NCBI GenBank assembly: GCA_027451705.1
Contig: DAIDIT010000119.1
Span: 2,012-66,011 of the forward strand
DNA from: Pseudomonadota bacterium
Lineage (GTDB): Bacteria; Myxococcota; Myxococcia; Myxococcales; JAKAPL01
Reading direction: 5' to 3'
Length of the DNA stretch: 64,000 nt
Notes under the pieces: generated by a model
Seen by the model: the letters and a program-made list of their open reading frames with translations, nothing else
What the model was told of the DNA's origin: nothing
Databases searched by the model: none
Program-made: the position numbers and the translations under genes
Shown: positions 25,984-62,483 of the stretch, piece after piece
How positions within the stretch are numbered: the first letter of the stretch is position 1
How the letters are laid out: each line of letters begins with the position of its first letter

Positions 25984-25986
25984 CCC

Positions 25987-31554: not shown

Positions 31555-32484
31555 ATGACGCAGAGACGACCACCGAGAGGCGGCGGGAAAGCCCACCGGT
31601 TCGGTGGCGGCTGGACGACCGCGAAGCTCGACGTGCTCGCAAAGTACCTGGCGAGCTACACGACTGCGCTGAAGGACAAGCCCTCGAAGGAGCATCCCTT
31701 CCGGAAGGGTTACATCGATGCGTTCGCGGGCACCGGGTACCGCGACGCGCGGCGCGACGACGAGTCGTCGCAGGCCTCGTTGCTGCTGCCAGACCTCGCG
31801 GAGAAGGAGCCGCAGGACCTCCTCGACGGCTCGGCGCGGCTCGCCCTAAAGACAGAGCCTCGCTTTGACCGCTACGTGTTCATCGAGCGCAGCGCCGAAC
31901 GGTGCGCGGAACTCGAGGCCCTCAAGACCGAGTTCCCAGACCTTGCGAAGGACATCCAGATCCGCCAGGGCGACGCGAACACCGAGATCCAGGACCTCTG
32001 CAAGAAGGACTGGCACTCGCATCGCGCGGTCCTCTTCCTCGATCCGTACGGCATGCAGGTCGAGTGGAAGACCATCGAGGCGATCGCCGAGACGAAGTCG
32101 ATCGATCTCTGGCTCCTCTTTCCGCTGGGCATCGGCGTGAACCGGCTGCTCACGAGGTCGGGCGACATCCCAGCGTCGTGGCGGCGCCGGCTCAACCTGC
32201 TTCTTGGAAACGAGAGCTGGTACGACGAGTTCTACCGCGTCGAGCGGACGCGCACGCTGTTCGGGGAGGCCGATCATGTAGTCAAGGCGACGACCGAGAC
32301 GATCGGGCGCTACTTCAACGAGCGCCTGAAGTCTGTGTTCCCGGCCGTCGCGGACGAGCCGCGGGTTCTCCGTAACTCGGCCAACTGCCCGCTGTACCTG
32401 CTCTGCTTCGCCGTCGGCAACGAGAAGGGCGCGCCGATCGCGCTGCGCATCGCGAACCACCTGTTGACGAAAGGGGTGCAGTGA
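31555..32484 (+). CDS. tcmP: three-Cys-motif partner protein TcmP
   Basis: N-terminal [24 protein letters not shown] and [12 protein letters not shown] are typical of TIGR04474. It also has LFLDPYGMQ. The stop overlaps the start of the DUF5131 gene. Confidence 0.7.
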
Positions 32485-33302
32485 TGGCGCTGGGCTCCGG
32501 CATCGAGTGGACCGAGTCCACCTGGAACCCCGTTACGGGCTGCACGAAGATCAGCCCCGGCTGCAAGTACTGCTACGCTGAGCGCATGGCTGAGCGCCTC
32601 CAGGCCATGGGGCAGGAGAACTACCGGAACGGCTTCAAGCTCACGCTCCAACCGCACATGCTCGAGTTGCCGCTGCGCTGGAAGAAGCCGCAGACGATCT
32701 TTGTGAACTCGATGAGCGACCTGTTCCACAAGGACGTGCCGCTCGACTACATACGGCGCGTCTTCGATGTCATGCGCCGCGCGAGCTGGCACCGCTTCCA
32801 GATCCTCACGAAGCGCTCCGAGCGCCTCGCTGAGCTCGACGCGAAGCTGGAGTGGGCGCCCAACATCTGGATGGGCGTGAGCGTGGAGAACGAGGAGTAC
32901 CGCTTCCGCATCGATGACCTCCGCACGACGCGGGCGATGATCAAGTTCCTCTCGCTCGAACCGCTTCTTGGCCCTCTACACGGCCTCAAGCTCAAGGGCA
33001 TCGACTGGGTGATCGTGGGGGGCGAGTCGGGGCCAGGCGCGCGGCCTATGGACCCAGCTTGGGCGCGGGACCTCCGCGACCAATGCCGCCGCGCGAAGGT
33101 TCCTTTCTTCTTCAAGCAGTGGGGCGGCACGAACAAGAAGCAGGCCGGTCGCGCTCTCGACGGGCGGACGTGGGATGAGATGCCGCCCGATCCACCGGCT
33201 CCGATGGCGCGGCGACGACGCCAGCTCTCGCTCGCCGTGGTCCCCGACGCGCCGAGGCCCGGTCCTGTTAATCGGCCCCTGAGGGATCCCCTCATTGCGT
33301 AA
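32484..33302 (+). CDS. DUF5131 / phage Gp37-Gp68 family three-Cys protein (3' end altered by IS insertion)
   Basis: [39 protein letters not shown] is the hallmark N-terminus, with a CX6CX2C motif. The last 7 codons and the stop lie inside the left end of the IS. Confidence 0.8.
33270..33278. repeat. left copy of the 9-bp target-site duplication AATCGGCCC
   Basis: It is identical to 34579-34587 and directly abuts the IS inverted repeat. Confidence 0.8.
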
Positions 33303-34614: not shown

Positions 34615-34617
34615 GTG

Positions 34618-38151: not shown

Positions 38152-40083
38152 CTATGGCACCTCCGCGTCTTCCAGGAGCTGGACGGGGATCTCGTCCAGG
38201 AAGGGGGAATGGTCACGTTCCCAGGGACTCCCGCGCACCGTCTTCCGCTTTCGAGCGCATGTCAGGTAGAGGCGAGACTTCGTTCTCGTGATGCCTACGT
38301 AGAAGAGACGTCGTTCCTCCTCCATCCGGCGGAGGTCCTTCTCGCTGCGAAAGTCGGGGAAGATGCCGGACTCGAGTCCGGTCAAGAACACAGCCGAGAA
38401 CTCGAGGCCCTTCGCCTGATGATACGTCAGCAGTGACACCGAGCCGTCGCGCGGGGACGAGCCGGCGAGAGTCCCGGCGCTGACGAGCTGCGGTAAGCCG
38501 AGCAGGAAGTCAGGGAGCGCGATTCGCCCGGTCGCCCCCATCCCTTGTCGCAGCCGCTCCAATTCGTCGAGAACGCGCTCCGCCTCTTCGGGCGCACCCT
38601 CTTCGTCACCTGCGCCCGAAAAGAGTCCAGGGAGGTCGGCCTTCAGCGCCGCCAGAAGCTTCTGCGTGTCCCGCCCGAGGAGCCTCCACCGGGCGACGTG
38701 TTCCACGACGGTCTGCAGACTCTGGGCGTCCTCGGGCATAGCCTCGCCCGCCAGGGCCGCCTCCACACCGATCGCCTTCGCTCGCGCCGCCCGCACTGCG
38801 CTCTCGAACGCGCTCGAAGCCTCCGGACACAGGACCGAGACCACATGCCGAGCGCTCTGTTCGTCCCGGCTGTTCTGGAGCCATCGCAGCAGACGCAGGA
38901 TTGCTTCAGCCTCTTCGGAGCCGCCGAGGCCCGCGATGCTCGGTCGCGCGGCTGGAATGCCGGCCGCGACCAACGCCTCCTCGACCGGGTCTAGCAGCCG
39001 CCGTGCTCGAGCTATGATCCCAATGTCGGCAGACCGCAACCCGAGCCGCCGCAGCTCCTTTACCGTCGCGACCACGAACGATGCCTCTCCATGTTCGTCG
39101 TCCGCCTGGAAGACCCGAATGGGCTCTACATCGGCACGCTCTGAGCGAATCTCCGGCTTGCCCGGGAACCGAAATCTGTTGCGCGCGATGACGGCATTTG
39201 CAGCCTCGACGATGTTGGAGGGGCATCGATGGCTCAAGGTCGCGTAGATCACCTTGGCCTGGAAGTCGGTGCAGATGCGGTTCAATGTCTCGAGGCGCGC
39301 TTCGTTCCACTCGAAGATGAGTTGGTCTTCGTCCGCGACGGCGAAGAGTCGTGGGGCGCTCGCATCGACCAGCAGTTGCAGAAGTTCATATTGGGAAGGC
39401 GTCGTGTCCTGGAACTCATCGACGAGAACATGGCCAAATGCAACCCGGTAGAGCCGCAGGACCTGCGGCCGCTCTTGGAAGAGCCGCACGCACTCGAGCA
39501 CCAGATCGCCAAAGTCTAGAGCGCCCGCGGCTCTCAGCGCGCCGCGGTAGGTCTCGTGCATCGCGCGGAGGCTGACGGAGATGTCTGGGACCTCGTGCTG
39601 CTTGATGTCGCCCAGAAGCCCTCGACTCTTCAGGCGCGAGAACGCGTGGACAAGGCTCCCCAGGTTGACGCCCGATGGGACGTGGCCCTGCTCCTGCAAC
39701 TGCTCCAGTAGGGCGAGCTGGTCGCGTTCGTCATAGACCATGAAGTCGGTGGGAATGCCGATCGCGTGACCGTGCGCACGAAGGACGTGACTGCCGAAGG
39801 CGTGGAAGGTGCCGATGAAAGCGCGTGTTTCGGCGTCCGGGATCTCGGAGTTCAAGCGAACTGTCATCTCCGTCGCAGCCTTGTTTGTGAAGGTCAATGC
39901 GAGCACCTTGCTCTTTCCAAGGGCCCCCGTCTCCAGCAACTGTCGCGCGCGCTGTACGAGCAGCGTGGTCTTGCCGGTGCCCGGTCCAGCCAGCACGAGG
40001 TATGCGCCCTCCGGCGGCGGGAGTTCCTCGTCGAGGGAATCCGTCGTCTTGCCAGTCGCTGCGTTGATCCTCGTCGGTTCCAC
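38152..40083 (-). CDS. gajB: Gabija GajB (UvrD/PcrA-like SF1 helicase)
   Basis: Motifs LVLAGPGTGKTTLL, ALTFTNKAATEM, LVDEFQDTTPSQ, TYHQAKGLEFSAVF and FYVGITRTKSRLYL. The GTG start has GGAGA 5 nt upstream. It lies directly downstream of the OLD-family gene. Confidence 0.8.
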   Translation of the reverse strand: MEPTRINAATGKTTDSLDEELPPPEGAYLVLAGPGTGKTTLLVQRARQLLETGALGKSKVLALTFTNKAATEMTVRLNSEIPDAETRAFIGTFHAFGSHVLRAHGHAIGIPTDFMVYDERDQLALLEQLQEQGHVPSGVNLGSLVHAFSRLKSRGLLGDIKQHEVPDISVSLRAMHETYRGALRAAGALDFGDLVLECVRLFQERPQVLRLYRVAFGHVLVDEFQDTTPSQYELLQLLVDASAPRLFAVADEDQLIFEWNEARLETLNRICTDFQAKVIYATLSHRCPSNIVEAANAVIARNRFRFPGKPEIRSERADVEPIRVFQADDEHGEASFVVATVKELRRLGLRSADIGIIARARRLLDPVEEALVAAGIPAARPSIAGLGGSEEAEAILRLLRWLQNSRDEQSARHVVSVLCPEASSAFESAVRAARAKAIGVEAALAGEAMPEDAQSLQTVVEHVARWRLLGRDTQKLLAALKADLPGLFSGAGDEEGAPEEAERVLDELERLRQGMGATGRIALPDFLLGLPQLVSAGTLAGSSPRDGSVSLLTYHQAKGLEFSAVFLTGLESGIFPDFRSEKDLRRMEEERRLFYVGITRTKSRLYLTCARKRKTVRGSPWERDHSPFLDEIPVQLLEDAEVP

Positions 40084-40092
40084 TCGTGTCTC

Positions 40093-41922
40093 CTACGCCT
40101 TCACCGCGGCGCCCGTGGCGAAGTCCCGAACCCTGTTGAGAGCCGCGACAACCGGCGCGGGAATCCGCGCCGGAATGGTTCCGCCAGCCGTGATCGCGTC
40201 GGCGACGTGGGCTGCGAAGACCACCTTCCACCGTTTGCCCCATCGCTGGTGCATCATGAAGTCATGGACCTGCTTCTCTCGAGGCAGGCCGGCCCGACTC
40301 GCGTCTCCAGCCACAAAGGCCGCCAGCGTTCCCGCCTCTGGGTTGGCTGCGATCGCTGCCTCATACTCGGCGCGAGCGCCGCCATAGATGAGCGCACCCT
40401 CGAGGTCGTGTCCTGCATCGAGTGCGAAGCAGTCGTGGGGGAGCAGGATGTCTTCCCGAAGCCGCCCGGCGGCCTTCGCGGTGTCTACGGCAGCTTGGGA
40501 GACACGCCCAGCGCTCATGAGGTGCTTGGCGAGCTCTTCCAGGTGTTCTCCATCCGAGAGAACGACCCATGGAATACCCAGAGCGTTCGTTCCGAGCATC
40601 CGGAGCAGCGGCACGTACGCCTTGCCGTCCACGGGCACGAGCGAGATGCCGTGGAGATGAAGATCAATGCCCAGCGCACGAGCGAAGAGCGGTACGGCAC
40701 GTACTTCGGATTCGCCCTCGAAGAGGAGCACGGCTCGAGCGAAGAAGACCTCAGCGGCACCAGAGCGGAGCTCCCGCTCCAAGATCGAGCGCTGCCGCGG
40801 AGCGAAGAACGGGGAGCCAGGGTTGGCGGGGTCGTCGACGGGAATCTGGGATGCGACGCACCCGTTACCTCCACGTCTGAGCAAGGTCACTTGATCAGCG
40901 CCGACCTGCCTGGCGATGGCGGTTGAGTGCGTCGTGACGAACGTCTGGCGGCCGATCGCCGCAAGCACACCGGCGATCGCGCGCCGCGCGTGCGGATGGA
41001 GGTGGACCTCTGGCTCTTCAATGCCGAGAAGTGGCTCGGCCTCCACGTTGTCGTTCTCTTCGCGGGCGAGCAGGTCGACAAAAGCCTGGAAGATGACGAG
41101 GTATCCCACGCTGCGAGTTCCCTCGCCGTGCCGGTCGAGTGGGAAGCCACGCGGGGAGTCGAGGGTCTGCAGCAGAACTTCGAGATTCCGAAGAATGGTG
41201 GCCGAGTCCACTGCAACGGGATTCACGACGACATCGTTGGGGGCAGACGCGGTTGGGATGATTCGCCCGATCTCACGGAAGCGCGTCCGAATTTCACCGA
41301 GGCGCGGAGTTGCGGCAAGTATGGACGTGTTGATGGTCTGGATCGCGGTCGCGACTGCTGCCGCGGTGGCGGGATCGAGCTGGATCGAATCGACGAGGCG
41401 CCCCCAGAAGCCGCGACGGTTCCGAAGTTCCCGCACCGTGTCTCTGAATGCATCTGCGAGGTAGAACGGGATAAATCGACGAAGGAGGCCACGCTTGCTA
41501 ATCGACAGGCGTCGCGTCGTTCCGTCGGCCTTCACCGAGAAGTAGTCGACGCGGACTCTGCTCTCTGCCGCATCAAAGGATGCCTCGGTTCGGAAATTCA
41601 GAAACGGCGCGCCGACCGCGTCAAAGTCTATGTTGTCGACAAACTCGGTGGTGAAAGCCACGCTGAAATCTGGTGCCGGCGTCGCGCGCAGTTCCAGGTC
41701 GATCCGGATCGTCGGGAGAGCGGCGGGAGCGTTCGCAGCTTGAACGAAAAAGTCTTCCAGCTCGAAGCTGGTTCCGCGGCCGAGGGCGCGATCAAGGGCG
41801 TGGAGAAGGCTCGTTTTACCGGTGTTGTTCTCACCGATCAGGAGGTTGATGTCGGCCTTCGCCACGAGATCGAAGGCCCGCAAGCATCGGAAGTTCTCGA
41901 TGTGGATCCTCGCGATGCGCAT
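40093..41922 (-). CDS. gajA: Gabija GajA (OLD-family ABC ATPase plus TOPRIM nuclease)
   Basis: MRIARIHIENFRCLRAFDL...LIGENNTGKTSLLHAL, LLGIEEPEVHLHPHA, and TOPRIM segments AVLLFEGESEVRAV and VVLSDGEHLEE. Confidence 0.8.
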   Translation of the reverse strand: MRIARIHIENFRCLRAFDLVAKADINLLIGENNTGKTSLLHALDRALGRGTSFELEDFFVQAANAPAALPTIRIDLELRATPAPDFSVAFTTEFVDNIDFDAVGAPFLNFRTEASFDAAESRVRVDYFSVKADGTTRRLSISKRGLLRRFIPFYLADAFRDTVRELRNRRGFWGRLVDSIQLDPATAAAVATAIQTINTSILAATPRLGEIRTRFREIGRIIPTASAPNDVVVNPVAVDSATILRNLEVLLQTLDSPRGFPLDRHGEGTRSVGYLVIFQAFVDLLAREENDNVEAEPLLGIEEPEVHLHPHARRAIAGVLAAIGRQTFVTTHSTAIARQVGADQVTLLRRGGNGCVASQIPVDDPANPGSPFFAPRQRSILERELRSGAAEVFFARAVLLFEGESEVRAVPLFARALGIDLHLHGISLVPVDGKAYVPLLRMLGTNALGIPWVVLSDGEHLEELAKHLMSAGRVSQAAVDTAKAAGRLREDILLPHDCFALDAGHDLEGALIYGGARAEYEAAIAANPEAGTLAAFVAGDASRAGLPREKQVHDFMMHQRWGKRWKVVFAAHVADAITAGGTIPARIPAPVVAALNRVRDFATGAAVKA

Positions 41923-41943: not shown

Positions 41944-42093
41944 CTACTCGGCCAGCGACTTGAACGCCGCCTGGGATGGCTCGCTGCTGAACTTGACATG
42001 CAGATTGTCGAGGATCGCCACCGGGTGCGCGGCCTGGAAAGCGAGTCCCGCTGCCGTCATCGACAGCTCGGCCTGGCCGAGACGAGTCTTCAT
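41944..42093 (-). CDS. 49-codon ORF translationally coupled to the upstream helicase-nuclease gene
   Basis: Hand-translated as MKTRLGQAELSMTAAGLAFQAAHPVAILDNLHVKFSSEPSQAAFKSLAE. Its ATG overlaps the upstream TGA (ATGA at 42090-42093). Its stop is 21 nt before the gajA ATG. It is below the ORF-track length cut-off. Confidence 0.35.
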   Translation of the reverse strand: MKTRLGQAELSMTAAGLAFQAAHPVAILDNLHVKFSSEPSQAAFKSLAE

Positions 42094-45000
42094 GGTGCTA
42101 GCACCTTGGCGATCAGCTCCGCGATGGCCTTGGCGTCGATGCCGCCCGCCTCGTCGTCGCGGGTGATGATCAGCGTCCCGCCACTACCCCCCCCCTCGCC
42201 GTGCGGAAGGATTTCGGCGGCCCGATAGGCCGCCAGCTTCCTCTCCCAGCGCGCCGCGTAGTCCGGGTTGTGCAGCAGCCCGAGGTGCTCCCAGTAGTAC
42301 CGGGCGCCGGTGTCGTCATCCACGACGGTGAAGTCGGGGTACCGCGTCTTGCCGTTTGGCAGGGTCAGCGGCGCCTCGTACTCGTAGCGATCGACGCCCT
42401 GCGCCAGGAGCTCGTTCGCGATGATAACCTCGGACTTCGAGCGGACGAGGTCGCCGCGCTTCGTCCGGTGGATAAGGCGATCCTCCAGGAACCGCTCCGC
42501 GCCGTCGACGTCGAAGGACACCGGTTTGGGCGGCGCGAAGAGGTTGGTCATCCGCCGTGCGATGTCGGAGTGTCTCTCGGTCGCGTAGCTGCGCAGGTCG
42601 CGGACCTTGCCCTGGTGAAGGATGATGATCCGCTCCTGCTGGCGTGTCAGGGCGGTGTAGAGGAGCTCGCGGGAGAGCATCCAGCACGGGTTCGGCAGCA
42701 CCACGAACGTGATCCCGAATTCGCTGCCCTGGGTCTTGTGCACGGTCAGCGCGTAAGCGAGGTCGAGGGGCGGCGATCCCTCGTCCCCGAACTCCCAGAC
42801 GCCGAAGTCGTAGTCGTGGCCCGGCTGGGATGTGAACTCGACCTCGAGGATCGGGAAGAGCTTCTTCTGCCCCTTGCGCTTGTAGTTGCCAACCACGAGC
42901 CCGACGTCGCCGTTGGCGACATACGAGGGGCGCTCGGGGTAGACCTTCCGCCGGCTGCTGTTCTGCAGGTTGATGACCTTGTCGCCGTAGATGATTCCCT
43001 GGCGACCCAGTGGGGAATGGATCTTCCTCTGGAACCCGTGAGCGGTTGCCCGCGATAGCCAAGTCTTTCGGAAGGTCTGCTGGACGACTCGGTTCAAGGC
43101 GTCGACGCCGTGATCGGCACCTCGAACCGGCGAGATGATCTGCCAGCTCTCGGCCTTCAGCGCGTTGTTCGCGTCGCGGCTGCGCCAGAAGAACGTGCCG
43201 CCGTTGTACAGGGTCGCGCCGAGCGTGCACTCGAAGCCGACCTCGTCGTCCCGTCCGCTGAGCTTCAGCTCCGTCACGACGAGGTCGATCAGCTTGGCCT
43301 GGACGTCCTCGCCGTCGGCCCACGACTCGAAGCGGATCTCGGGCATCTTCTCCTGCTCGATCCGGTCCCAGATCTCGTCGGCCGCCGGGTCGGCGTCCCC
43401 GCCGAACCAGCTCGCGAGGATCAGGTCCGCCCGCGTCGCCCCTTGCTGGCGGCGCGGGATCGTCAGCTCGGCATAGCCTCGCCCGACGCGCGGGAACCGG
43501 TGCTCGACGCCCTCCGGCTCGAGCTCGCGGACGATGTCGACGAAGGGCCGTCCGCTACCGATCGGCGGTAGCTGGCGGGGGTCACCAACCAACACGAGGC
43601 GGTCCACGCCGCTCAGGGCGTCGACGAGCGCGGCAAGCTGCTCCTCCGTGAGCATCGAGCACTCGTCGATGATCGCGGTTCGGTAATCGCCACAGCGCTC
43701 GGTGCTTCCAGTGACCCGGTATCGTCCGGTGTCTGGGGCGTAGCGCTCTCCGTACCGCATCAGGAACTGCGCGATCGTGAGGCCACCTTCCATCTCGGTC
43801 TTCGTTTCGAGCTGGACTCGAGCCTTACCGGTCGGCGCGAGCAGCAGGACGCCACCGGCCGCCACATCGTCGAGCGCGCAGAGCATCTTCAAGAGCGTCG
43901 TCTTGCCAGTGCCGGCGGCGCCGATGAGCACGGACAAGCGCGAGGCGAAGACCTCTTCGAGCGCCGCTGCCTTCTCCGTTCGCGCCTTCTCCTCGACCGC
44001 TCCGTCCGCCGGCCCGGACGGCAGCTTGCCGAGGTGCTTCTCCACGACCGCGCGGAAGTCGTGCTTCCCCTTGTGCCGCTGGCTCTTCGGGCTGATGCGC
44101 TTCTGCACCGTCTTGCGAATGAGGTCAGTGGTGTCCGCAAACCGCGTGAGCTGGAATGCGGGGCTTCCGTCTGCCATCTCGATCGGCTGAACAACGCCGG
44201 CCAGCATGTCGCCGAGCCCCGCGAGAACCTCCTGGGCGACTGGACAATCGGTCTCGAGCGGCATCTTGCCGATTCCCGCCGTCACCCACCCACGCGGCAT
44301 CAACGTGTGCCCCTCTTCCGCGCCGTGTTCGAGCGCCGCGACCAAGAGCGCGCGCACCCGCCGCGGGTCGACCTTGTCCTCGAGCCGTGATCGGTCGGGG
44401 AGCGGATGCGCTTCGAGGACAGCACGATCGGGGAGCACGCCGCGGTCGATGGTCATCACCGAGATGGGATCCACCGAGTCGCGATCGATCTCGTAAAAGA
44501 GGTACGGGTTGGCGAGCAGCGCAGCGTCGTCCACACATCCGGGTCGCTGGTCCGGATCGAAGAACCGAGTGGCCTGCGAAGCCTCGATCGAGAACCGGCT
44601 CACGAGTTTCAACAGCTCCTTCTTCTCGGGCGTCATTGCGAGCCACGCGCGGCCGAATCCTTCCCCAACGACCAGCTTCGCCGCTCCCTTGGCACCGTCT
44701 GGCGCCCGCATCAGGCGCTCGAATGCGGGCCAGGGATCGACGTTCCCGTCGCTGTGGCCCTTCGCGCTCTCCTCAGCCAGCTCGTAGGCGACGAGGTTTC
44801 CGCCGTCCCCGAGGAAGGCTGTGAGCGCGGAGCCAAACCCGGGGAACGGACCGCGCATGCGCCACAGCCGGTTCAACTGCAGGTCGAGCCAGGCCGAGAC
44901 CCGCTTCCACGGTCCCGGCAGCACGGCGTCGATCTTCTCTAGTGCGCGGATGCAGCTCAGGACCGACGCGATGGCTTGATCGTGCGAGACGTGCTCTGAG

Positions 45001-45884
45001 GCGTAGGAGAAGCTCCAGAAGGCATCGTCGGGGGCGAACGCGAGGAACTGCTCGGGATCCAGCCCCTTCTCCAGCGCAAGGTCGAACAGCTCCCGGTACG
45101 GGAACAGGAAGCCGTCCTCGAACCCGGTCCGGATGGAGTGCTCGACGTTCCGCTCCCAGAGCACGCTTCGATGCGGCGGCTTCGTGGTCGAGTACTTGTA
45201 CTCGACGTGCTCGTCGATGGACCGCACGCGACCCACGCCCACGATGACCCGGCCAGCGGAGGAGGAGAGTGGCGTGTCCTTCGCGTAGAAGAAGCAAAGC
45301 GACTCCTCGGGCCGAACGGCACCGAAGAACGTGTCGAGCATGACGAGCTGGTTCGCGCGGTCCTGGATCCAGTCGACCTCGAACCCGAAGTCAGGCTCCC
45401 GATCGGGCTGGAAGCCGAGGTCATAGCGTCCGATGATCTCGGCGCCTTCCTCCTTCAGCATCCAGCGAAACGGAACGCATGCGGCGCTGTATGGACGCAT
45501 CGTGTAGGGCGTCGGCAGGAAGTGGCCGTGGGACTGGGAGTTGCGTTCGACGTACGGGTGGCGCTTGGTGACGGTGATCGGGAAGGGCGCCATGAAGTTC
45601 GCGCGCTCCGCGATGCACGGAGGAAGCTGGTCGTGGGCGAGGTCCGCGAGCGACTTGCCGGCAACCGACATCTCGTTGGCATCGTCCTTAACTTCCGCGA
45701 TTCGTCGAAGCGCCCGGCATGCGGTGTTGCTCGCGGGCTTATCGCAGACGGTCCCAACCCACCCCGCGTCGTGCCACGGCACTCGGATCGACAGGTGTTG
45801 GACGGGAAGACGGCGTGCGCCGGCGATCATGGCTGCCTCGGTGTCGTTCTTGAGCCCGTCCGGGCTCCGGGCTGGGGCGCGCAC
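42090..45884 (-). CDS. giant SF1 (RecD/Dda-like) helicase with an unknown N-terminal domain and a C-terminal PD-(D/E)xK-like nuclease domain
   Basis: The N-terminal LSIRVPWHDAGWVGTVCDKPASNTAC begins about 600 aa without assignable motifs. Helicase motifs VLIGAAGTGKTTLL, AIIDECSMLT, LVLVGDPRQLPPIG and ALTVHKTQGSEF. C-terminal SKSEVIIANELL...RYPDFTVVDDDTGARYYWEHLG. The start is GTG at 45884 or ATG at 45830. Confidence 0.75.
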   Translation of the reverse strand: MRAPARSPDGLKNDTEAAMIAGARRLPVQHLSIRVPWHDAGWVGTVCDKPASNTACRALRRIAEVKDDANEMSVAGKSLADLAHDQLPPCIAERANFMAPFPITVTKRHPYVERNSQSHGHFLPTPYTMRPYSAACVPFRWMLKEEGAEIIGRYDLGFQPDREPDFGFEVDWIQDRANQLVMLDTFFGAVRPEESLCFFYAKDTPLSSSAGRVIVGVGRVRSIDEHVEYKYSTTKPPHRSVLWERNVEHSIRTGFEDGFLFPYRELFDLALEKGLDPEQFLAFAPDDAFWSFSYASEHVSHDQAIASVLSCIRALEKIDAVLPGPWKRVSAWLDLQLNRLWRMRGPFPGFGSALTAFLGDGGNLVAYELAEESAKGHSDGNVDPWPAFERLMRAPDGAKGAAKLVVGEGFGRAWLAMTPEKKELLKLVSRFSIEASQATRFFDPDQRPGCVDDAALLANPYLFYEIDRDSVDPISVMTIDRGVLPDRAVLEAHPLPDRSRLEDKVDPRRVRALLVAALEHGAEEGHTLMPRGWVTAGIGKMPLETDCPVAQEVLAGLGDMLAGVVQPIEMADGSPAFQLTRFADTTDLIRKTVQKRISPKSQRHKGKHDFRAVVEKHLGKLPSGPADGAVEEKARTEKAAALEEVFASRLSVLIGAAGTGKTTLLKMLCALDDVAAGGVLLLAPTGKARVQLETKTEMEGGLTIAQFLMRYGERYAPDTGRYRVTGSTERCGDYRTAIIDECSMLTEEQLAALVDALSGVDRLVLVGDPRQLPPIGSGRPFVDIVRELEPEGVEHRFPRVGRGYAELTIPRRQQGATRADLILASWFGGDADPAADEIWDRIEQEKMPEIRFESWADGEDVQAKLIDLVVTELKLSGRDDEVGFECTLGATLYNGGTFFWRSRDANNALKAESWQIISPVRGADHGVDALNRVVQQTFRKTWLSRATAHGFQRKIHSPLGRQGIIYGDKVINLQNSSRRKVYPERPSYVANGDVGLVVGNYKRKGQKKLFPILEVEFTSQPGHDYDFGVWEFGDEGSPPLDLAYALTVHKTQGSEFGITFVVLPNPCWMLSRELLYTALTRQQERIIILHQGKVRDLRSYATERHSDIARRMTNLFAPPKPVSFDVDGAERFLEDRLIHRTKRGDLVRSKSEVIIANELLAQGVDRYEYEAPLTLPNGKTRYPDFTVVDDDTGARYYWEHLGLLHNPDYAARWERKLAAYRAAEILPHGEGGGSGGTLIITRDDEAGGIDAKAIAELIAKVLAP

Positions 45885-45885
45885 A

Positions 45886-47889
45886 TCACAGGTCCATCCT
45901 GAGCAGGCGGTCCTCGGCAGGTGCGCCTGCCAGCTTCAGTCGCATCCAGGGAGGGGTGAGGAAGCCGGCCGGTGGCTGCGTCGTCGTGGTGACGATGTAC
46001 TGGAAGCTCGGCTCGCCCTGGAAGCACTGCTCGAGCTGGCGCGCGTAGAGGAAGATCCTCTCGTAGATGTCCGGCGCCATGTCGGCCTCACGCGGCCCGT
46101 CGTGAACCAGAAATCGAGGGAAGCACCCGCGCCCCTGAACGCTCTCCGTCAGCGCAGCGAGATCGAACGACACCAGCTTCAGCGTGGCCAGTGCGGCGCT
46201 CTCTCTTTGGCCGTGATGCTCGACGATCAGATCGAGACCGCGCCCGGAACTCTCGACGCGGCCCTCCACCTCGTCCCCGAGAACAGCTCGGAGCGCGTAG
46301 TCGAATGTTGCCGAGAACTTTCCCAGAGCCTGGAGGGCGGCCTTTCGGAGCTCCTCCTGGCGCACGTAGGATGCGTCGATGTCTGTTGCGAGCTGGCTGA
46401 CGAGCCCTGCTTGCTTGGTCGATTGGACCCATGCGTTCTCGGCATCATCCACCAGGCGCTGGGCCTGTTGAAGTTGGGCCTGCTCGTCGAGCAGCCGTCC
46501 GCGGTGCTCGTCGTAGGCTGTCGCCGCCGCGAAGTAGCCCCGGCGCGCCGCTAGGGTCGCAGCCTCTGCGTCCTTCAGCGCCTGTTCCTTCTTGGCGACG
46601 GTTGCCTCGATGGCCCGGACGACCTCCCGCTGGGCCTCAAGCTCTTCGGCTGCGGTTCGCTCGCTACGCCGCTCGGCGAGATCCAAGGGTTGGGTCGATG
46701 CCAACGGGCACCCGCGCTCGCGCGCCAGCGCCATGGGGACGTTGCAGTAGTCGCGCGGCGGCGGCAGGCCGGCGAAGAGGTTGCTCTGGCTCTCTCCCTT
46801 GGCCTTCGAGGCGAGCTGCACGACGGTCGCGCTCTCCATCGCCAGGCGTGCCCGGGAGTCTTCGAGATCCCGCCGTGCAAGAGCCTCGACCCCGACGGCG
46901 CGCTCCAGTGCGCCTTGCAAGCTGGCCCGCTGGTCAGCACTGGCGAGCTCCGCCATTCGCTTCCCAAGCTCCTCTCGGCGACGGTTCATCTCGGTCCGAG
47001 CTTGCGAGCCGAACAGGCCCGATGACGGCGGCGCGACCTCCGACTGCAGGAGCCGCTGCACGCGTGCGTGATCGGTGGCCGCCTGATGAGCGAGAAGCGG
47101 CTCCCTCTGCGTTGCGCTCTTCTTGTCGGCGACTAGTGTGGCGTTGCGTTCCTGCTCCTCGCGTTCCTGCTCGGTGATCAGTCCGAGGACAGAGCGAACG
47201 AGGAACTGCCGCTCATCAACGATGAGTCCGGGGGCGTCCGAGCCGCTCGAGCTGTGCCGCCACTCCAGGAAGTCAGAAAAACGGCACTCCTGGTCGCGGG
47301 TCAGCCAGGGAAGAACGTGCGCCCAGCCTACGACGTCGTCGCGGGTCGGAAAGCGGCTTGCTGGAAGCCGAGCCGTGATGGCCCTGTCGATGGTATCGAG
47401 AAAGACTTGGAACTCGGAGCGGTCCGTCCTCGCGAGGAGATCATCAACGCCGCCGCCCTCGATGCAGCACGGGTGGCGCCCCATCCCGAACGGGCGCGCC
47501 ACGGTCCAGAGCTGCCGGTCGATGACGACTTCCGCGAGGACCCAGCCGGACGGCAGCTTCTCGCGGATGCGGCGACGCGTAGTCTCGCTCGCGAACGTGC
47601 CTTCCCCCAGCACATAACGCAGGAGCCGGCACAGCGTCGTCTTGCCAGCGGTGTGGCCCGCCATACCGCTGCGGAAGAGCGCGTTGCCGTTGCTCGAGGC
47701 TTCCGGTGGCGCCCAGACGATGTTCAGCCCGCGCCGCAGCTCGACATCCCGGACCACCTGCTCCTCGCCGGGCTGAAGATCGCGGAGCACCCGAAGGCGG
47801 CGCACCCAGAGCACGGGCTCAGCGCGATCGGCTGCTGGCCTCACGTGCTGCGGCGGATCGATGCCCTGCAACCGGAGCTGCATCGTCAT
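45886..47889 (-). CDS. coiled-coil ABC/SMC-like ATPase (DUF2326-like ends)
   Basis: The ATG at 47889 overlaps the methyltransferase stop (ATGA). Walker A is SGMAGHTAGKTTLCRLL. A long Ala/Glu/Gln/Arg-rich helical middle follows. C-terminal Walker-B-like CFPRFLVHDGPREADM. Confidence 0.7.
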   Translation of the reverse strand: MTMQLRLQGIDPPQHVRPAADRAEPVLWVRRLRVLRDLQPGEEQVVRDVELRRGLNIVWAPPEASSNGNALFRSGMAGHTAGKTTLCRLLRYVLGEGTFASETTRRRIREKLPSGWVLAEVVIDRQLWTVARPFGMGRHPCCIEGGGVDDLLARTDRSEFQVFLDTIDRAITARLPASRFPTRDDVVGWAHVLPWLTRDQECRFSDFLEWRHSSSGSDAPGLIVDERQFLVRSVLGLITEQEREEQERNATLVADKKSATQREPLLAHQAATDHARVQRLLQSEVAPPSSGLFGSQARTEMNRRREELGKRMAELASADQRASLQGALERAVGVEALARRDLEDSRARLAMESATVVQLASKAKGESQSNLFAGLPPPRDYCNVPMALARERGCPLASTQPLDLAERRSERTAAEELEAQREVVRAIEATVAKKEQALKDAEAATLAARRGYFAAATAYDEHRGRLLDEQAQLQQAQRLVDDAENAWVQSTKQAGLVSQLATDIDASYVRQEELRKAALQALGKFSATFDYALRAVLGDEVEGRVESSGRGLDLIVEHHGQRESAALATLKLVSFDLAALTESVQGRGCFPRFLVHDGPREADMAPDIYERIFLYARQLEQCFQGEPSFQYIVTTTTQPPAGFLTPPWMRLKLAGAPAEDRLLRMDL

Positions 47890-50800
47890 ACGACTCCTGC
47901 AGCGCGAGGCACAACGCGATCGGCGTCGGGGATGACCGAGTCCACCTCCTGCACGCGCGCGGCTGGGATGGCCGCGAGCACGCGCAGCGCGAGGCGTGCC
48001 TCGAAGCGAAACCATTCGTCGATCTGATCCTCGGGCGGCGTGTGGGCGCTTGCTGTGACAAGCGACGCGCCTGACGCGTCCGTCGTCAGCTTGAGACCAT
48101 CACGGCTGCCGAGAGTCCTGATTGACTCCGCCAGCGATCCGGCTCCGACGCTGCGGGCGGCGACGCGAGCTGACCAGGCGTTCGCCGGCGCCTGGAGTTC
48201 CGGCGGTGCGAGCCGCTTGAGGAGGGCGGGCTGACTTCGGAGGACAAATGCACGGGCGAGGTCCGTGCGCGGAATCGCTCCTCCGGCCGCGTGGAGCAGA
48301 GACCACACGCAGACCGCCGCCTCTTGTACGGGATCGAGCGATGGGATCGCCTGTGGCATCAGAGGCAGATCGATAGCCGAGACAGAGCCCTCGCGACGCT
48401 GCAGCGCTGTTTGAACCAATACGATCGGATCCCGAGGAGGAAGGTTCTCCAATACAGTCCGGCGCTCAGCCGCCGTGAGTTCGTACGCTTCCTCGATAAG
48501 TTGGTTCAGCGAGACCTCAAGCTCGACCCGCTTGGCGGCGTTCTCGGTCGTAGCCAGCGGGAGCAACTGGGCGACATGCTCCTCAATTGATTGGCGAAGC
48601 TGGGGAGCGATCTCTGCCGGAATCGGGAGCTCACCTAGCACCCCCCTGAAGCGGCGCGCATCGTCCTTGGCCGGTTGCGCGGTGTTGTAGAAGTACCACC
48701 ACATGAGCCGGCTGTTGAGCAAGGCGAGTGTGACGGGGTCACCGACAGGAATGAGGTACACCGTATCGCCGACGTGCAGCTCCCCCTGGTCGAGCGCGAA
48801 CTCCGAGCGCCATGCCATGTCGCCCACGACGATCTTCGGTCGAGTGAATGCATCGTAATAGTCACAGGAACGGAGTTCCCACCAAAACGTCCCCTGATCA
48901 GATCTCGCCCGCAGCGCACTCTCCTGCTGCTTCATGTGCTCATGGATCGCGGGGTAGTTGGCCGCGAACAGTCGCTCCGCCGCTATCTCACCGTCCGCGT
49001 TCGACCACGGCCATTTCCGATTCGCCGACGAGGCGAGAACCAGAATCCACTGCGCGCTGGCGTAGCAGGCCCAGCGCCCAATCTCCCGACCTCGCGCAAA
49101 GGGCTTGATGATCTCCTGCGAGGCGGGGTCCGACCCTACCAATCTGCTCTTCGTGGCTTCGTCGATGCAGTAGGCCTCATTCAGCCCGGTCTTGATCCCG
49201 AAGAGAGGAGGCCCTGCGACTGCCTGAAGCGGTCGACAGTCGCGCCGAAGGCGTTCCAGAAGTTCAACCATGGCAGCGTCCTGCAGCTGCCAGATAGCCT
49301 CCTGGAGTTGAGCATGAGTTATTCGGCGCACCGCCTCTCGCAGCAGGTTGGAGAGTGGTTGCACCTTGCGCACGGCATCCGGGGCATCGAGGCAGAGCAG
49401 CGGAGTCTGATCGTCGACGGTGCGGGCCGCGAGCTGGAAGGAGACGGCAGCAGGGAACGTGTCTGCGCCTGGAAACAACGTCTTCGAGTGACCGAAGTCG
49501 ACAAGCAGGAGCACCTGAGCACGCTCGCGAAGGAGCTTGCGGAGGCTCAGTCCGTAGTCCGCCCGGAACCACTTGTTGGGCGTCAGAAGTCCGGCCGTCC
49601 CCCCGATCCGAGCCACTCGGGTGGCTACCTCCAGGAAGAACACGGAAAGATCGGCGCTGCTCTTAAAAGAGCTATAGGTGGCGAGGACCGGCTTGATATC
49701 GACGAACTCCTCCTGGCGGATCCACGGCGGGTTACCGAGAATTGTGTCGAAGCCGCTTGTCCATCCCGACCACGGTGCTCCGCGATGGGAGCCCTCACCG
49801 CTCGGTGAGAAGACCTGCGGAAAAGACAAGTGCCAGTGGAAGAAGCGATGCTTCTTTGCGAGATCGCGTACAGTGCGCCGCGTTGTCGGGGGCACGTCCG
49901 TCGGATCGTGGAGCAATTTCCTCCAAGCTCCCTCGGTGATCGCGGAGTCTTCAAGTTCGCCCGGCTGCTTGGGCCACAGAAATGCGGCGCACCAGGCATC
50001 GGCCTTGGACCAGGCATCCTTGTACTCGGAGGATCGCGTCAACCGCTCCCAGTCCTCAGCCTTCCGCCGCACCGCGGCGATGTCGCTGTCCGGCTCGGCG
50101 TCGATGGTGGTGGCCTGCGCTGCCAGGGCGGCTTCATCCCCGCCAGGTCGGCCAGCGAACATGGCCAACATGCTCGTCTGGCCTTCACGTTCGTCCTTGT
50201 TCCGCTTCTTGAGGCGCTTCGCGACGTCCTTGTGGTCGCCTGCGATCGGCTTGAACGCGTCGTCGGGAATCCCGCGCGTCATCAGTGCCGGAGTGGCTCC
50301 AAGGAGGGCGTTGCCGCACTGGATGTGGCTGTCGAGAAACGACAGCGGTCGGCCCGGCTCGATAGCTTCTATCCAGAGGCTCACCTTGCAGAGCTCAACG
50401 GCCATCGGGTTCACGTCCACGCCGTAGACACATCGTCCGACGACGTCGCGTAGCGCGCGCTGAACTTCGCGCGGGCTCGGCTCATCCTCGCCGGCACGGA
50501 CTGCGGCGAGCCGCTTGGCAATGCGGCGCGCGGCAGCGACGAGGAAGTGCCCCGACCCACAGGCCGGATCGCAGACCTTCAGATCGAGGATGGCCGCCTC
50601 GGGGTCAAGCTTCCTGCACGCCTCGTCCAGGACGGGAACGAGCGCCGAATCGAGGAGGCAGTCCACGAGCTCGGTGGGGGTGTAGTAGCTCCCCGTCAGC
50701 TTGCGCTCGTGACCCGGCGCGGTCTCGAGCACGAACGTGGCAGCTTCCTTGTTGATGCTCGGGTGCAACTCGAGCAGGCCCTCGTAGATGCTCCCGAGTT

Positions 50801-52046
50801 CTTCGGCGCCGACGTTGCGCCAGTTCACCGGGTAACGGGTCCGGCCCTCCTCGATGTTGGAGATGTGCCGGACCGCATCGAGCAGGTGCTCGTTGGGGCA
50901 CTCAGCCCCCATCAGTGCGGGGCACGCCGTTGGCCCCCACAGGCGGCTGCCGAGAGCTGGCAGCGCGAGCTCGGGGCACCCGTTGTCGAGCTTCGACATC
51001 ACGAGCCGCAGCCCCTGCCAGAGGTCGCTGTGCGGACCGCCGCGGCGCTTATCGGACAGCTCGCGCAGTCGACGAGTCGCGTAGAAACGCAAATAGCGGG
51101 CCTTCGCGGCTTCGTCGGCCTTGGGATCGAGAAGCGCCTCCCGTTCCTCTGCGACGAAGAGGAAGATCAGCCGGTACACGAGCCGGAGGATCTGGCGATA
51201 GTAGTCCTGCTTGTCGAGCTCACCCTTCTCGAGCGCGTCGTGCAGCTTCGAGTTCGCACGATGCGCGAGGAAGCCGGTGCCGAACGCCTCGATGGCGGCC
51301 CTCGCGCCGGCGAACATCTTCTCGAGGGCGCTGATGCCCTGCTTGCGCGAGGTCTCGAACCACTGCTCGAGCCAGCAGTCATCGGGCTTCTCGGCCTCGA
51401 CGCGGCTCTGGTGGCACACCATCCAGAGCAGGAGGAACTCGCTGTACTGCTCGCCCTCCATGATCGACTGGAGGTCGAACTCGACGTAGGCCTGCCGGGT
51501 CAGACTGTGGTGGTCGCGCAGGAGGCGAAGCTGGAGACCGTTCGAGACGAAGCCCCAGAGGTGGTGCTCCGAGCGGTTGAGGAACTCCTGCACGAGGCCA
51601 TGCGGCGAAGCCTTCGCGGCTCCGGACACTCCGGCCTGCCGGCGGTCGAGATCCACCCCGACGCCGAGCAGGTGGATCGGCGAGAAGTGCCACATGTGTG
51701 AGACCGCGTAACTCTTGCCTTCGACCTCGATGGCCTGGCCCTTCGGCAGGCGGCCGTACCCCAGCTCCTGGAACAGCGGCAACAGCCACCGGTCGCGGGT
51801 GAGGCCCGTCGCCTTGACGGCATCAGGCTCCTTGGCGAGTGCCTCCTGAAAGGCCCGCCACGCGCCCGTCACCCGGCTCCAGGCGCGGTTGACGGCCTCG
51901 CCGATCCGCTCGTGCGGGCCGAGGTGGTAACTCTCCGGCGTCAGCCCTGGCAGGTCCTTGTCGCCCGCCTGGATGCGCGAGAGGACGTCCTGGGGCAGCA
52001 GCCCCCCCTCGGTGCGCACGCTGCTGAACTGGAAGCCGCGGCTCAT
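47886..52046 (-). CDS. very large N6-adenine DNA methyltransferase (type IIG/DrmMI-like), second copy
   Basis: The ATG at 52046 (MSRGFQFSSVRTEGGLLPQDVL) overlaps the SNF2 stop. Motif I is KVCDPACGSGHFLVAAARR and motif IV is ILGNPPWIRQEEF. The N-domain has GFVSNGLQLRLLRD. Confidence 0.8.
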   Translation of the reverse strand: MSRGFQFSSVRTEGGLLPQDVLSRIQAGDKDLPGLTPESYHLGPHERIGEAVNRAWSRVTGAWRAFQEALAKEPDAVKATGLTRDRWLLPLFQELGYGRLPKGQAIEVEGKSYAVSHMWHFSPIHLLGVGVDLDRRQAGVSGAAKASPHGLVQEFLNRSEHHLWGFVSNGLQLRLLRDHHSLTRQAYVEFDLQSIMEGEQYSEFLLLWMVCHQSRVEAEKPDDCWLEQWFETSRKQGISALEKMFAGARAAIEAFGTGFLAHRANSKLHDALEKGELDKQDYYRQILRLVYRLIFLFVAEEREALLDPKADEAAKARYLRFYATRRLRELSDKRRGGPHSDLWQGLRLVMSKLDNGCPELALPALGSRLWGPTACPALMGAECPNEHLLDAVRHISNIEEGRTRYPVNWRNVGAEELGSIYEGLLELHPSINKEAATFVLETAPGHERKLTGSYYTPTELVDCLLDSALVPVLDEACRKLDPEAAILDLKVCDPACGSGHFLVAAARRIAKRLAAVRAGEDEPSPREVQRALRDVVGRCVYGVDVNPMAVELCKVSLWIEAIEPGRPLSFLDSHIQCGNALLGATPALMTRGIPDDAFKPIAGDHKDVAKRLKKRNKDEREGQTSMLAMFAGRPGGDEAALAAQATTIDAEPDSDIAAVRRKAEDWERLTRSSEYKDAWSKADAWCAAFLWPKQPGELEDSAITEGAWRKLLHDPTDVPPTTRRTVRDLAKKHRFFHWHLSFPQVFSPSGEGSHRGAPWSGWTSGFDTILGNPPWIRQEEFVDIKPVLATYSSFKSSADLSVFFLEVATRVARIGGTAGLLTPNKWFRADYGLSLRKLLRERAQVLLLVDFGHSKTLFPGADTFPAAVSFQLAARTVDDQTPLLCLDAPDAVRKVQPLSNLLREAVRRITHAQLQEAIWQLQDAAMVELLERLRRDCRPLQAVAGPPLFGIKTGLNEAYCIDEATKSRLVGSDPASQEIIKPFARGREIGRWACYASAQWILVLASSANRKWPWSNADGEIAAERLFAANYPAIHEHMKQQESALRARSDQGTFWWELRSCDYYDAFTRPKIVVGDMAWRSEFALDQGELHVGDTVYLIPVGDPVTLALLNSRLMWWYFYNTAQPAKDDARRFRGVLGELPIPAEIAPQLRQSIEEHVAQLLPLATTENAAKRVELEVSLNQLIEEAYELTAAERRTVLENLPPRDPIVLVQTALQRREGSVSAIDLPLMPQAIPSLDPVQEAAVCVWSLLHAAGGAIPRTDLARAFVLRSQPALLKRLAPPELQAPANAWSARVAARSVGAGSLAESIRTLGSRDGLKLTTDASGASLVTASAHTPPEDQIDEWFRFEARLALRVLAAIPAARVQEVDSVIPDADRVVPRAAGVV

Positions 52047-56963: not shown

Positions 56964-62483
<5,520 letters not shown>

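Follow-up and report, generated by a model that had tools for sequence, protein, structure and literature searches.

An SMC/Rad50-type ATPase at the end of a DISARM-like operon is genomically linked to a C-terminal domain of the upstream-encoded methyltransferase

Introduction

Class 1 DISARM consists of DrmD, DrmMI, DrmA, DrmB and DrmC, and Lamassu of LmuA, LmuB and LmuC, among which LmuB has an ABC head and a short antiparallel coiled coil; other ABC ATPases, namely PrrC, RloC and the PARIS protein AriA, are genetically attached to a restriction–modification (R-M) complex, in the case of PrrC physically too. A further catalogue, that of the PDCs, collects defense candidates that were recognized because they lie embedded within BREX, DISARM and type I R-M systems (bioRxiv 10.1101/2024.01.29.577857).

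The window analyzed here is a stretch of 64,000 nucleotides of contig DAIDIT010000119.1 (GCA_027451705.1), of Myxococcales lineage. A sequence-only reading had proposed that it encodes an SMC/ABC-type sensor and a large helicase-nuclease effector, forming a dedicated pair that maps to no named system. We find that the ATPase closes a DISARM-like cassette and is linked to a domain of the methyltransferase (MTase) encoded upstream of it, and that the large protein is an already catalogued defense candidate.

Results

The ATPase gene is the last of five translationally coupled cassette genes, all encoded, like every other feature described below, on the minus strand. Gene 1 (56964–62483) specifies a DruE/DrmA+DrmB-like helicase, recognized by Pfam and PADLOC matches, with DEAD, Helicase_C and MrfA Zn-binding/DUF1998 domains as well as a weak DUF559 match; kept upstream of the ATPase in ~15 loci, it stops 2 nt ahead of a UvrD-like SF1A helicase gene (54880–56961), which is optional, being present in some cassettes only, and whose product has an N-terminus of ~225 aa without assignment. 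An ATGA overlap leads from this gene to a DrmD/DpdE-like SNF2 helicase (52043–54883; PADLOC DpdE 843 bits, DrmD 262 bits), for which the NCBIfam DISARM_DrmD model gives 288.6 bits, under its cut-off of 610. This is followed, through a second ATGA, by an Eco57I/DrmMI-like N6-adenine DNA MTase (47886–52046; Pfam Eco57I, N6_Mtase and TaqI_C, PADLOC DrmMI) of 1386 aa when read from the ATG at 52046, with homolog alignments that start at ORF residue 97. Altogether, ATGA overlaps at 54883, 52046 and 47889 and the single 2-nt gap join the five genes. Helicase–SNF2–MTase–ATPase cassettes that lack the large helicase-nuclease gene are also found on isolate plasmids.

The ATPase gene (45886–47889) begins with an ATG at 47889 that overlaps the TGA of the MTase gene by 4 nt, and more than 20 homologous loci show the same 4-nt overlap; gene callers place the start at 47883, yielding 665 instead of 667 aa, and the two genes are tightly joined under either start. 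This overlap had been noted from the sequence, as had a Walker A motif GHTAGKT (47638–47658; invariant in alignment A1), a C-terminal FLVHDGP (46093–46113) and a long helical middle, all of which are present; in an AF2 model (pLDDT 81.6), the latter is an antiparallel coiled coil of ~125 residues. Within FLVHDGP, the Walker B region, D595 is followed by Gly and not Glu, and the H-loop position is occupied by Thr, so that ATP turnover may be atypical. [quoted passage not shown] The structure search that the earlier reading had recommended did return relatives: Foldseek ranks Bacillus subtilis YydD on top (E 2.9e-17), then LmuB (7e-12 to 6e-8) and, further down, Smc, Rad50, MukB and JetC. Relatives of the ATPase match the PADLOC LmuB HMMs with E values down to 2.4e-16, the window protein itself scoring an insignificant 16.6 bits; Pfam DUF2326 matches the C-terminal region with 19.7–23.2 bits, below cut-off, and relatives carry the RefSeq name "DUF2326 domain-containing protein". 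The protein is thus an SMC/Rad50-type ABC ATPase, nearest to Lamassu LmuB and YydD, and searches with Pfam families and inspection of the AF2 model found no effector domain in its polypeptide.

The constant partner of this ATPase is a C-terminal domain (CTD) of the protein encoded upstream, not the downstream gene. In the window the CTD spans ~160 aa of the MTase (47949–48440) and corresponds to no Pfam family. An iterated HMM of it matches 46–48 of 74 ATPase loci, solely in the ORF whose end meets the start of the ATPase gene, and matches neither any of 162 control loci nor the other DISARM-like MTase of the window. Its hosts are, by Pfam, an Eco57I/DrmMI-like MTase, PglX (DUF7008) belonging to BREX-1 or BREX-2, HsdS (Methylase_S), a ResIII helicase or a free-standing protein, and in the loci examined the CTD was never seen without the ATPase. 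CTD and ATPase distances are correlated with r = 0.91, a value reached in 0 of 2000 permutations, and with r = 0.90 for pairs with different host proteins only. In locus L181, which carries orthologous SNF2 and MTase genes (58% identity), both CTD and ATPase are absent. This genomic pattern suggests that the CTD may be a docking domain that binds the ATPase physically. In ~15 of the 48 CTD-linked loci the ATPase is operon-terminal, being followed by a gene on the opposite strand or by a transposon, which means that no effector need be encoded downstream. No CTD is detectable in 28 ATPase loci, and in some of these the ATPase is instead coupled to a gene for a RES-domain protein, a cyclase or an RT lying downstream, an arrangement that looks more like sensor-effector logic and counts against the explanation we prefer.

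The large downstream protein (42090–45830, 1246 aa; alignment A2) turned out to have a named entry after all, matching PADLOC PDLC05065 (PDC-S68, hereafter S68) over its full length with 1516 bits. Its apparent start 1 nt from the ATPase gene was an ORF artefact, the GTG at 45884 being merely the first in-frame start of ORF 42090–45884: since every homolog in A2 starts with MIxGARxLP and a GAGG Shine-Dalgarno precedes the ATG at 45830, the latter is the true start, as in the 1246-aa gene call (P0121), and the genes are separated by a 55-nt spacer (45831–45885; 52–76 nt in relatives) that was found to hold neither a promoter-like nor a terminator-like site. The protein consists of a Cys-rich N-domain without assignment, a winged helix, RecD2-N-like subdomains, an SF1B RecD-like core and a C-terminal PD-(D/E)xK-like block. 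The helicase motifs recognized earlier were borne out by AAA_30 and UvrD_C_2 matches and by similarity to RecD2 (3e1s, E 3e-21). As for the proposed nuclease module, a YPDF...YWEHLG...RWERK block (42237–42341) with invariant D, E, H and K columns (A2/A5) is conserved, but a nuclease family match failed to emerge, the best family hit of the C-terminus being Uma2 (E 0.07) and a profile search of the PDB returning nothing; the motif makes this part a putative PD-(D/E)xK nuclease. A PUA/EVE-like fold, suggested for the N-domain, found no backing in searches for PUA, EVE or ASCH matches, and Foldseek with an AF2 model of the domain (pLDDT 85.9) retrieved nothing from the PDB below E 0.04.

S68 is an autonomous single-gene defense candidate that usually occurs on its own. 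GTDB species representatives contain 269 S68 loci; of these, 94 from distinct species were examined, and none contains the ATPase. Conversely, S68 is absent from all 76 ATPase loci of GTDB species representatives and, with one narrow lineage set aside, from all of ~80 ATPase loci. The idea of a dedicated pair is not sustained by these counts, nor does the expected co-occurrence elsewhere extend beyond the lineage of the window and one further contig. S68 relatives at 70–75% identity stand alone among housekeeping genes, and 16 of 80 S68 loci lie directly downstream of a co-oriented MTase gene, which leaves some room for S68 being a methylation-aware effector. In no fewer than five independent contigs, S68 comes immediately after the ATPase: these are the window, L078, L079/L080 and L161, to which the contigs of P0004/P0122 and P0007/P0124 can probably be added. 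They span 60–84% ATPase identity and differ in the DNA beyond S68; because of this and of the position of L078 outside the main S68-positive clade, some selected linkage of the two genes in the lineage is possible. Sister cassettes L003 and L004 lack S68. L181 has the order SNF2–MTase–S68 with neither ATPase nor CTD, indicating that S68 is tied to the cassette or position rather than to the ATPase. In this lineage S68 is appended downstream of the cassette, like many defense genes that lie inside or beside R-M-like systems. A 167-nt spacer then separates it from a Gabija system (38152–41922; GajA 40093–41922, GajB 38152–40083; PADLOC 279 and 373 bits), which is not part of the feature and is not found downstream of S68 in L078 and L079.

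Discussion

We consider it probable that the locus combines two separate things, a CTD-partnered ATPase that ends a DISARM-like operon and an independent PDC-S68 appended downstream. The CTD would tether an ATPase dimer to the MTase or specificity subunit, its host being the component that recognizes the target in DISARM-like, BREX-1, BREX-2, type I R-M or ResIII-helicase systems. The ATPase, for which we infer the role of an ATP-gated DNA clamp or sensor, would hold or bridge the recognition complex on DNA and relay a signal to the motor and nuclease proteins that the system itself supplies. The earlier view that the MTase coupling extends the DISARM-like locus thereby gains support for the ATPase, with the partner sharpened to the MTase CTD; as to novelty, S68 was already catalogued, and no earlier description of the portable CTD+ATPase module seems to exist.

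The ATPase could instead be a guard that watches the MTase complex through the CTD and, upon the action of a phage inhibitor, releases or activates a downstream effector, which would be S68 here and an HNH, RES, RT or GmrSD-like protein in other loci. PrrC with EcoprrI and PARIS AriA with Ocr are analogs of such a guard. The co-oriented downstream gene is indeed often of nuclease or toxin type, with HNH_2 in L002, L011 and a Mesorhizobium plasmid, RES, overlapping by 4 nt, in L022, L023 and L075, RT in L059 and L076, GmrSD_N in L164, and also S68; moreover, ABC ATPases inside R-M-like systems are known to act as backup layers (PMC12839542). We nevertheless regard this as unlikely: the ATPase is operon-terminal in many loci, among them L003 (73% identity) and that of Paraburkholderia pI, no adaptor domain is common to the downstream genes, most of which are defense genes known to stand alone, and S68 looks active and is widespread where there is no ATPase.

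Still less probable is a functional sensor-effector pair of ATPase and S68, restricted to the lineage and grafted onto the cassette. The two genes stay neighbors in the window, L078, L079/L080 and L161, with variable flanks past S68, and one gene order is common to all S68-positive cassettes; yet co-occurrence outside the lineage is nil in 170 loci, S68 has its own Shine-Dalgarno and starts 52–76 nt away, L181 keeps S68 without ATPase or CTD, and the sister cassettes do without S68. That the ATPase is an independent defense gene, embedded beside MTases by a pure neighborhood effect and bound to them neither physically nor functionally, would agree with how commonly unrelated defense genes are embedded in BREX, DISARM and type I R-M loci, ~97% of them co-oriented. 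We give this reading almost no credence, given that five different upstream hosts carry, as an in-frame fusion, a dedicated domain never found without the ATPase, that this domain co-diverges with the ATPase across hosts, that the stop/start overlap is conserved and that the ATPase itself lacks an effector domain.

Among described systems, PDC-S68 (PADLOC; Payne et al., guilt-by-embedding) shows no family-level difference from the 1246-aa protein, which matches its HMM end to end; like other PDCs, it occurs both alone and beside or within BREX, DISARM and R-M-type loci, its N-terminal ~300 aa having no known fold and its nuclease being recognizable at motif level only. The best structural match of the ATPase, YydD (DUF2326 family; YydD-YydB integrative model 9a6c), differs from it by sharing 11% residue identity and in its genomic partners, and explains little because, to our knowledge, YydD has no known function. 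Class 1 DISARM shares with the cassette an SNF2 protein, a large N6-adenine MTase and a DEAD helicase with DUF1998/MZB in one operon, but the cassette lacks the PLD nuclease DrmC, has DrmA and DrmB fused as a DruE-like protein, scores under the NCBIfam equivalog cut-offs and carries an extra UvrD-like gene, an SMC-like gene and the MTase CTD. LmuB belongs to the same fold class as the ATPase, and in both systems an adjacent partner polypeptide has a variable N-terminal functional part; unlike Lamassu, the window system has no LmuA or LmuC homolog, and the partner of its ATPase is a novel CTD fused to MTase, specificity or helicase subunits, not to a nuclease effector. Finally, RloC too has a coiled coil, with a hook that contains Cys; in contrast to PrrC, RloC and AriA, however, the ATPase has no anticodon-nuclease or TOPRIM effector, either within itself or as a constant neighbor, and its attachment appears to be hard-wired through the fused CTD.

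Operon structure and neighboring defence genes

The window is a defence island of 67% GC in which eight large ORFs run along the minus strand from 62483 down to 38152. The two ORFs that the sequence-only reading had combined into an ATPase plus helicase-nuclease pair both exist, at 45886-47889 and 42090-45884, and the former contains the Walker A GHTAGKT, the long helical middle and the FLVHDGP attributed to it. Genes preceding the ATPase are closely packed: a 2-nt gap lies between the stop of the DruE-like helicase gene and the start of the UvrD-like gene, and ATGA overlaps join UvrD-like to SNF2, SNF2 to methyltransferase (whose true start is ATG 52046) and, as originally described, methyltransferase to ATPase, the last being a 4-nt junction repeated in more than 20 homologous loci. 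The ATPase is the last gene of this tightly coupled five-gene unit; its assignment to a DISARM-like locus through the methyltransferase is supported by the unit itself and by the C-terminal domain (CTD) that the methyltransferase carries.

The large protein (S68, minus strand) had been placed 1 nt after the ATPase stop, at a GTG. This is an ORF artefact: homologues all begin with MIxGARxLP, the gene call is 1246 aa and GAGG precedes ATG 45830, the real start, so that a 55-nt spacer (52-76 nt in relatives) separates the two genes. A further 167 nt lie between S68 and GajA, and both S68 and Gabija are cistrons of their own, apart from the five-gene unit. A promoter and terminator scan of the spacers gave nothing above chance, and the Shine-Dalgarno sequence is the sole conserved element in aligned regions upstream of S68.

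The neighbor of S68 (38152-41922) is a Gabija system, with GajA (OLD-type ATPase-TOPRIM) scoring 279 bits and GajB (UvrD helicase) 373 bits; it is a separate system outside the ATPase-S68 region. Other defence genes on the plus strand are a PADLOC candidate pair, PDC-M41A/B (31555-32484 and 32481-33302), followed by a 380-aa ORF without family assignment and a UG5-nitrilase defence reverse transcriptase (34615-37611). On the minus strand lie genes for an RT/DnaG-like protein (2382-5348), a PbeA/type IV REase-like helicase (5345-6733) and a type IV-A CRISPR-associated DinG-like helicase (6717-8651).

The large protein is a catalogued candidate

The pair had initially not been mapped onto any named two-gene system; its large protein matches the PDC-S68 model of PADLOC-DB v2 (PDLC05065) end to end, with 1516.4 bits and residues 26-1261 aligned to model positions 3-1218 of 1221. 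S68 is therefore already catalogued as a candidate, PDCs being candidate families nominated because their genes occur inside BREX, DISARM and type I R-M loci (bioRxiv 10.1101/2024.01.29.577857); a literature search for PDC-S68 returned nothing. Its proposed RecD-like helicase portion is confirmed by matches of ORF 42090-45884 to RecD-like SF1B helicase, AAA_30, AAA_19 and UvrD_C_2 domains and to RecD2 (3e1s, E 3e-21). The C-terminal block (YPDF...YWEHLG...RWERK) is likewise conserved, and its assignment as a nuclease is kept at the level of a motif: a PDB profile search for a nuclease family gave no match, the best Pfam match is Uma2 at E 0.07, and this region may be a nuclease as judged from its residues.

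The predicted structure of residues 1-620 is confident (pLDDT 85.9). A PUA/EVE-like modified-base reader had been suggested for this N-domain, a reading left unsupported because Foldseek against the PDB found nothing better than E 0.04, with subdomain matches only to winged-helix and RecD2-N folds; a Pfam search at E <= 10 gave no match either. The N-terminal 120 residues, with window 45759-45785, contain four nearly invariant cysteines (C29, C38, C72 and C118) and an RVPWHD motif, a combination that suggests a metal-binding module.

S68 occurs independently of the ATPase

A first scan for S68 loci was swamped by the generic RecD helicase motif and yielded 14 true loci; repeated with an N-domain alignment, it identified 269 loci in GTDB species representatives. 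The ATPase is absent from all 94 loci inspected (80 of the 269, plus the 14 of the earlier scan), and no conserved neighbor gene is found in them. S68 lies just downstream of a co-oriented methyltransferase in 16 of the 80 loci, and is accompanied by a co-oriented methyltransferase or SNF2 gene in 26 and by neither in 54; stand-alone copies, 75% and 70% identical to the window protein, occur in complete chromosomes with housekeeping genes around them. S68 is a one-gene unit that has no obligatory partner.

Several arrangements recur around it. S68 is repeatedly found at the 3' end of cassettes in which SNF2 and type ISP-like methyltransferase (Type_ISP_C) genes share its orientation (loci L081, L092, L190, L197, L208, L210, L213, L217, L222 and L226), with a 1251-aa reverse-transcriptase-like gene interposed in L081; in L208 and L218 the methyltransferase ends within about 10 nt of the S68 start or overlaps it. 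Full-length homologues (37-41% identity) of the 693-aa UvrD-like cassette protein adjoin S68 in ATPase-free loci (L216, identical to L089, 7647-9662; L236, 4718-6808), and among ATPase cassettes every S68-positive one also has the UvrD-like gene. A different ABC ATPase (509 aa; SMC_N, AAA_23, AAA_15) lies between an Eco57I-type methyltransferase and a distant S68 homologue (28% identity) at L094 5899-7425.

The order ATPase-then-S68 is confined to the lineage of the window (contigs L079/L080, the IS-damaged L161 and probably those of proteins P0004/P0122 and P0007/P0124) and to one more distant cassette, L078, with different DNA beyond S68 in each contig. In the ATPase tree, the cassettes with S68 group in one clade, L078 excepted, and the sister cassettes L003 and L004 have no S68. 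In L079, the genes immediately after S68 encode a relaxase and MobC (15946-17524), and in L161 (7050-8288) an ISL3 transposase splits the methyltransferase and the ATPase is in fragments; the cassette thus resides on mobile DNA and is decaying. In our reading, S68 is an autonomous candidate that was added to the end of the cassette and has since been inherited with it, although a functional tie to the ATPase specific to this lineage is possible. A dedicated two-gene system is not what these loci describe, as the large protein is already PDC-S68, the ATPase belongs to the upstream operon and none of the 94 S68 loci has it; the proposed pair resolves into a catalogued candidate gene and an SMC-like accessory apparently hard-wired to methyltransferases.

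An SMC-like ATPase with unusual Walker B residues

The ATPase family is well conserved (296 clusters, typical length 662-669 aa), with an invariant Walker A, Q-loop-like RDQ, RxS, HDGP and mid-protein cysteine pair. Its predicted structure (pLDDT 81.6) consists of an ABC head and an antiparallel coiled coil, with the two cysteines in a low-confidence apex; neither the model nor family searches reveal an effector or extra domain. A PDB sequence search gave no match, and the fold search alone was informative: Foldseek ranks Bacillus subtilis YydD (2.9e-17) ahead of Lamassu LmuB (7e-12 to 6e-8), next to which come Smc, Rad50, MukB, JetC and retron PtuA. Against the PADLOC LmuB profile the window protein scores 16.6 bits (E 4.6e-4) and relatives up to 58 bits (down to 2.4e-16). 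Pfam DUF2326 (PF10088) is matched with 19.7 bits by the whole protein and 23.2 bits by a C-terminal fragment, below the gathering threshold of 28.7; the PF10088 label is precomputed on many homologues, and RefSeq names relatives DUF2326. At Walker B (46093-46113), HDGP has Asp-Gly in place of the usual Asp-Glu, and a threonine run (IVTTTT, 45979-45996) occupies the position of the switch histidine of SMC and Rad50; both features are invariant in the family.

The ATPase is associated with a C-terminal domain of its upstream partner

In 76 loci of GTDB representatives, the gene downstream of the ATPase is highly variable (for example a CBS protein, HNH_2, RES, RT, AAA_5 or PglY) and often on the opposite strand; the gene upstream, in nearly all cases, encodes the component with which a methylation-based system recognises its target. 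This component can be an Eco57I/DrmMI-like methyltransferase, itself after SNF2 and a DruE-like helicase; PglX of BREX-2, preceded by PglW and with a PglY-like gene further on; HsdS, after HsdR and HsdM; or a ResIII helicase. One further contig has a BREX-1 arrangement, BrxA-BrxB-BrxC-PglX-ATPase-GmrSD-PglZ. The sole part common to these different proteins is their last ~160 residues, corresponding to the CTD of the window methyltransferase (47949-48440, minus strand).

An HMM iterated from this methyltransferase tail matches exclusively the ORF whose end meets the start of the ATPase; this is so for 46-48 of the 74 loci with upstream sequence, and 162 control loci have no match. In one locus the CTD stands by itself as a 296-aa protein, with the ATPase and then an N6_N4 methyltransferase encoded after it, and in L181 an orthologous SNF2-methyltransferase pair (58% identity) lacks both the tail and the ATPase. 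Moreover, CTD and ATPase co-diverge: their pairwise distances correlate with r = 0.91 (0 of 2000 permutations as high) and, for pairs with different host proteins, with r = 0.90, as exemplified by L045 (ResIII host) and L074 (HsdS host), whose ATPases are 73% and CTDs 72% identical. Because the association is exclusive and the distances co-diverge across hosts, CTD and ATPase behave like a single mobile unit that becomes fused to a variety of host genes. A word-indexed homologue search with the CTD recovered only 5 fragments, and an exhaustive search of representatives was diluted by a common methyltransferase segment matching the first ~70 profile positions; about 50 of the best 150 matches cover the CTD proper, always at the protein C-terminus.

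The window has another, paralogous DISARM-like cassette on its plus strand (17546-31443), encoding a DrmD-like SNF2 (17546-20878), a type IIG/DrmMI methyltransferase (20875-25983) and a DruE-like helicase (25987-31443). It has neither a CTD on its methyltransferase nor an SMC-like ATPase, and so serves as an internal control. The helicase-SNF2-methyltransferase-ATPase cassette is also found without S68 on plasmids of cultured Mesorhizobium and Paraburkholderia, where the ATPase is annotated 'SMC' or 'DUF2326'.

Some relatives of the ATPase have no CTD. A RES-domain protein is encoded downstream of those of L019, L022, L023, L032 and L075, with 4-nt overlaps in L022, L023 and L075 and, in L022, a position directly after BrxL; those of L039 and L041 (Polyangium) precede a protein with an adenylate/guanylate cyclase domain.

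No description of the CTD-ATPase module was found in the literature checked, and a full-text search for DUF2326 gave nothing relevant; in a 2026 BREX survey that catalogues OLD-type ABC modules, one section and the passages containing the search terms make no mention of it.

Proposed role of the module

We tentatively suggest, at slightly less than an even chance, that the CTD and the SMC-like ATPase constitute a Lamassu-related portable two-part module that is joined, through a CTD fused in frame, to the subunit recognising the target in no fewer than five classes of methylation-based defence (DISARM-like, BREX-1, BREX-2, type I R-M and ResIII-helicase) and adds an ATP-gated DNA-clamping or -sensing layer. 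The CTD would dock an ATPase dimer on the methyltransferase or specificity subunit, and the apex cysteines of the coiled coil could form a hook-like dimer contact. ATP-driven engagement of the heads might then clamp or sense DNA at or between recognition sites and pass the signal on to the helicase and nuclease proteins of the host system.

Chief among the alternatives is a guard of PrrC/PARIS type, in which the ATPase fires variable downstream effectors; the nuclease- and toxin-type neighbors and the RES-coupled relatives lacking a CTD speak for it, and the about 15 CTD-linked loci that end with the ATPase speak against it. The portable clamping or sensing module, if real, would add to restriction-type immunity a general accessory that has not been described before. 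It ties SMC/Rad50-type ATPases to DNA methyltransferases or specificity subunits in a concrete way that can be tested: the putative docking domain and the ATPase move together among DISARM-like, BREX and type I R-M systems, suggesting a shared unmet need, for example to capture DNA, to communicate between sites or to control themselves. The module also offers a way to approach how DNA is engaged by BREX and DISARM, two systems of still unclear mechanism, and experiments are feasible because the cassette is plasmid-borne in cultured Mesorhizobium sp. AR07 and Paraburkholderia dioscoreae Msb3.

Comparison with known systems

The cassette resembles DISARM class 1. Its SNF2 protein scores 262 bits against PADLOC DrmD and its methyltransferase 257 bits against DrmMI; against NCBIfam DISARM_DrmD the SNF2 protein scores 288.6 bits, under the equivalog cut-off of 610. 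The candidate for DrmA and DrmB (DUF1998) is a single 1839-aa DEAD + Helicase_C + MZB protein, which scores highest against DruE (326 bits) and only weakly against DrmA. No cassette gene encodes a PLD domain as in the DrmC nuclease.

Other systems were considered for the ATPase. PrrC/RloC was rejected, as the predicted head and coiled coil are not followed by a C-terminal anticodon-nuclease domain, and PARIS because its defining effector domain is missing. Hma (helicase-methylase-ATPase) was rejected since the window ATPase is of ABC/SMC type with no HmaC match, even though the SNF2 gene matches HmaA with 184 bits; HmaC is a DUF499 AAA+/STAND ATPase, a different class, according to PMC12839542. 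Despite the strong LmuB fold match, Lamassu membership was also rejected: the neighbors of the ATPase are the methyltransferase and S68, and neither LmuA nor the LmuC of type II is found among the neighbors scanned with PADLOC, which places the ATPase outside Lamassu. By analogy, it may nevertheless work in a manner comparable to LmuB or Rad50.
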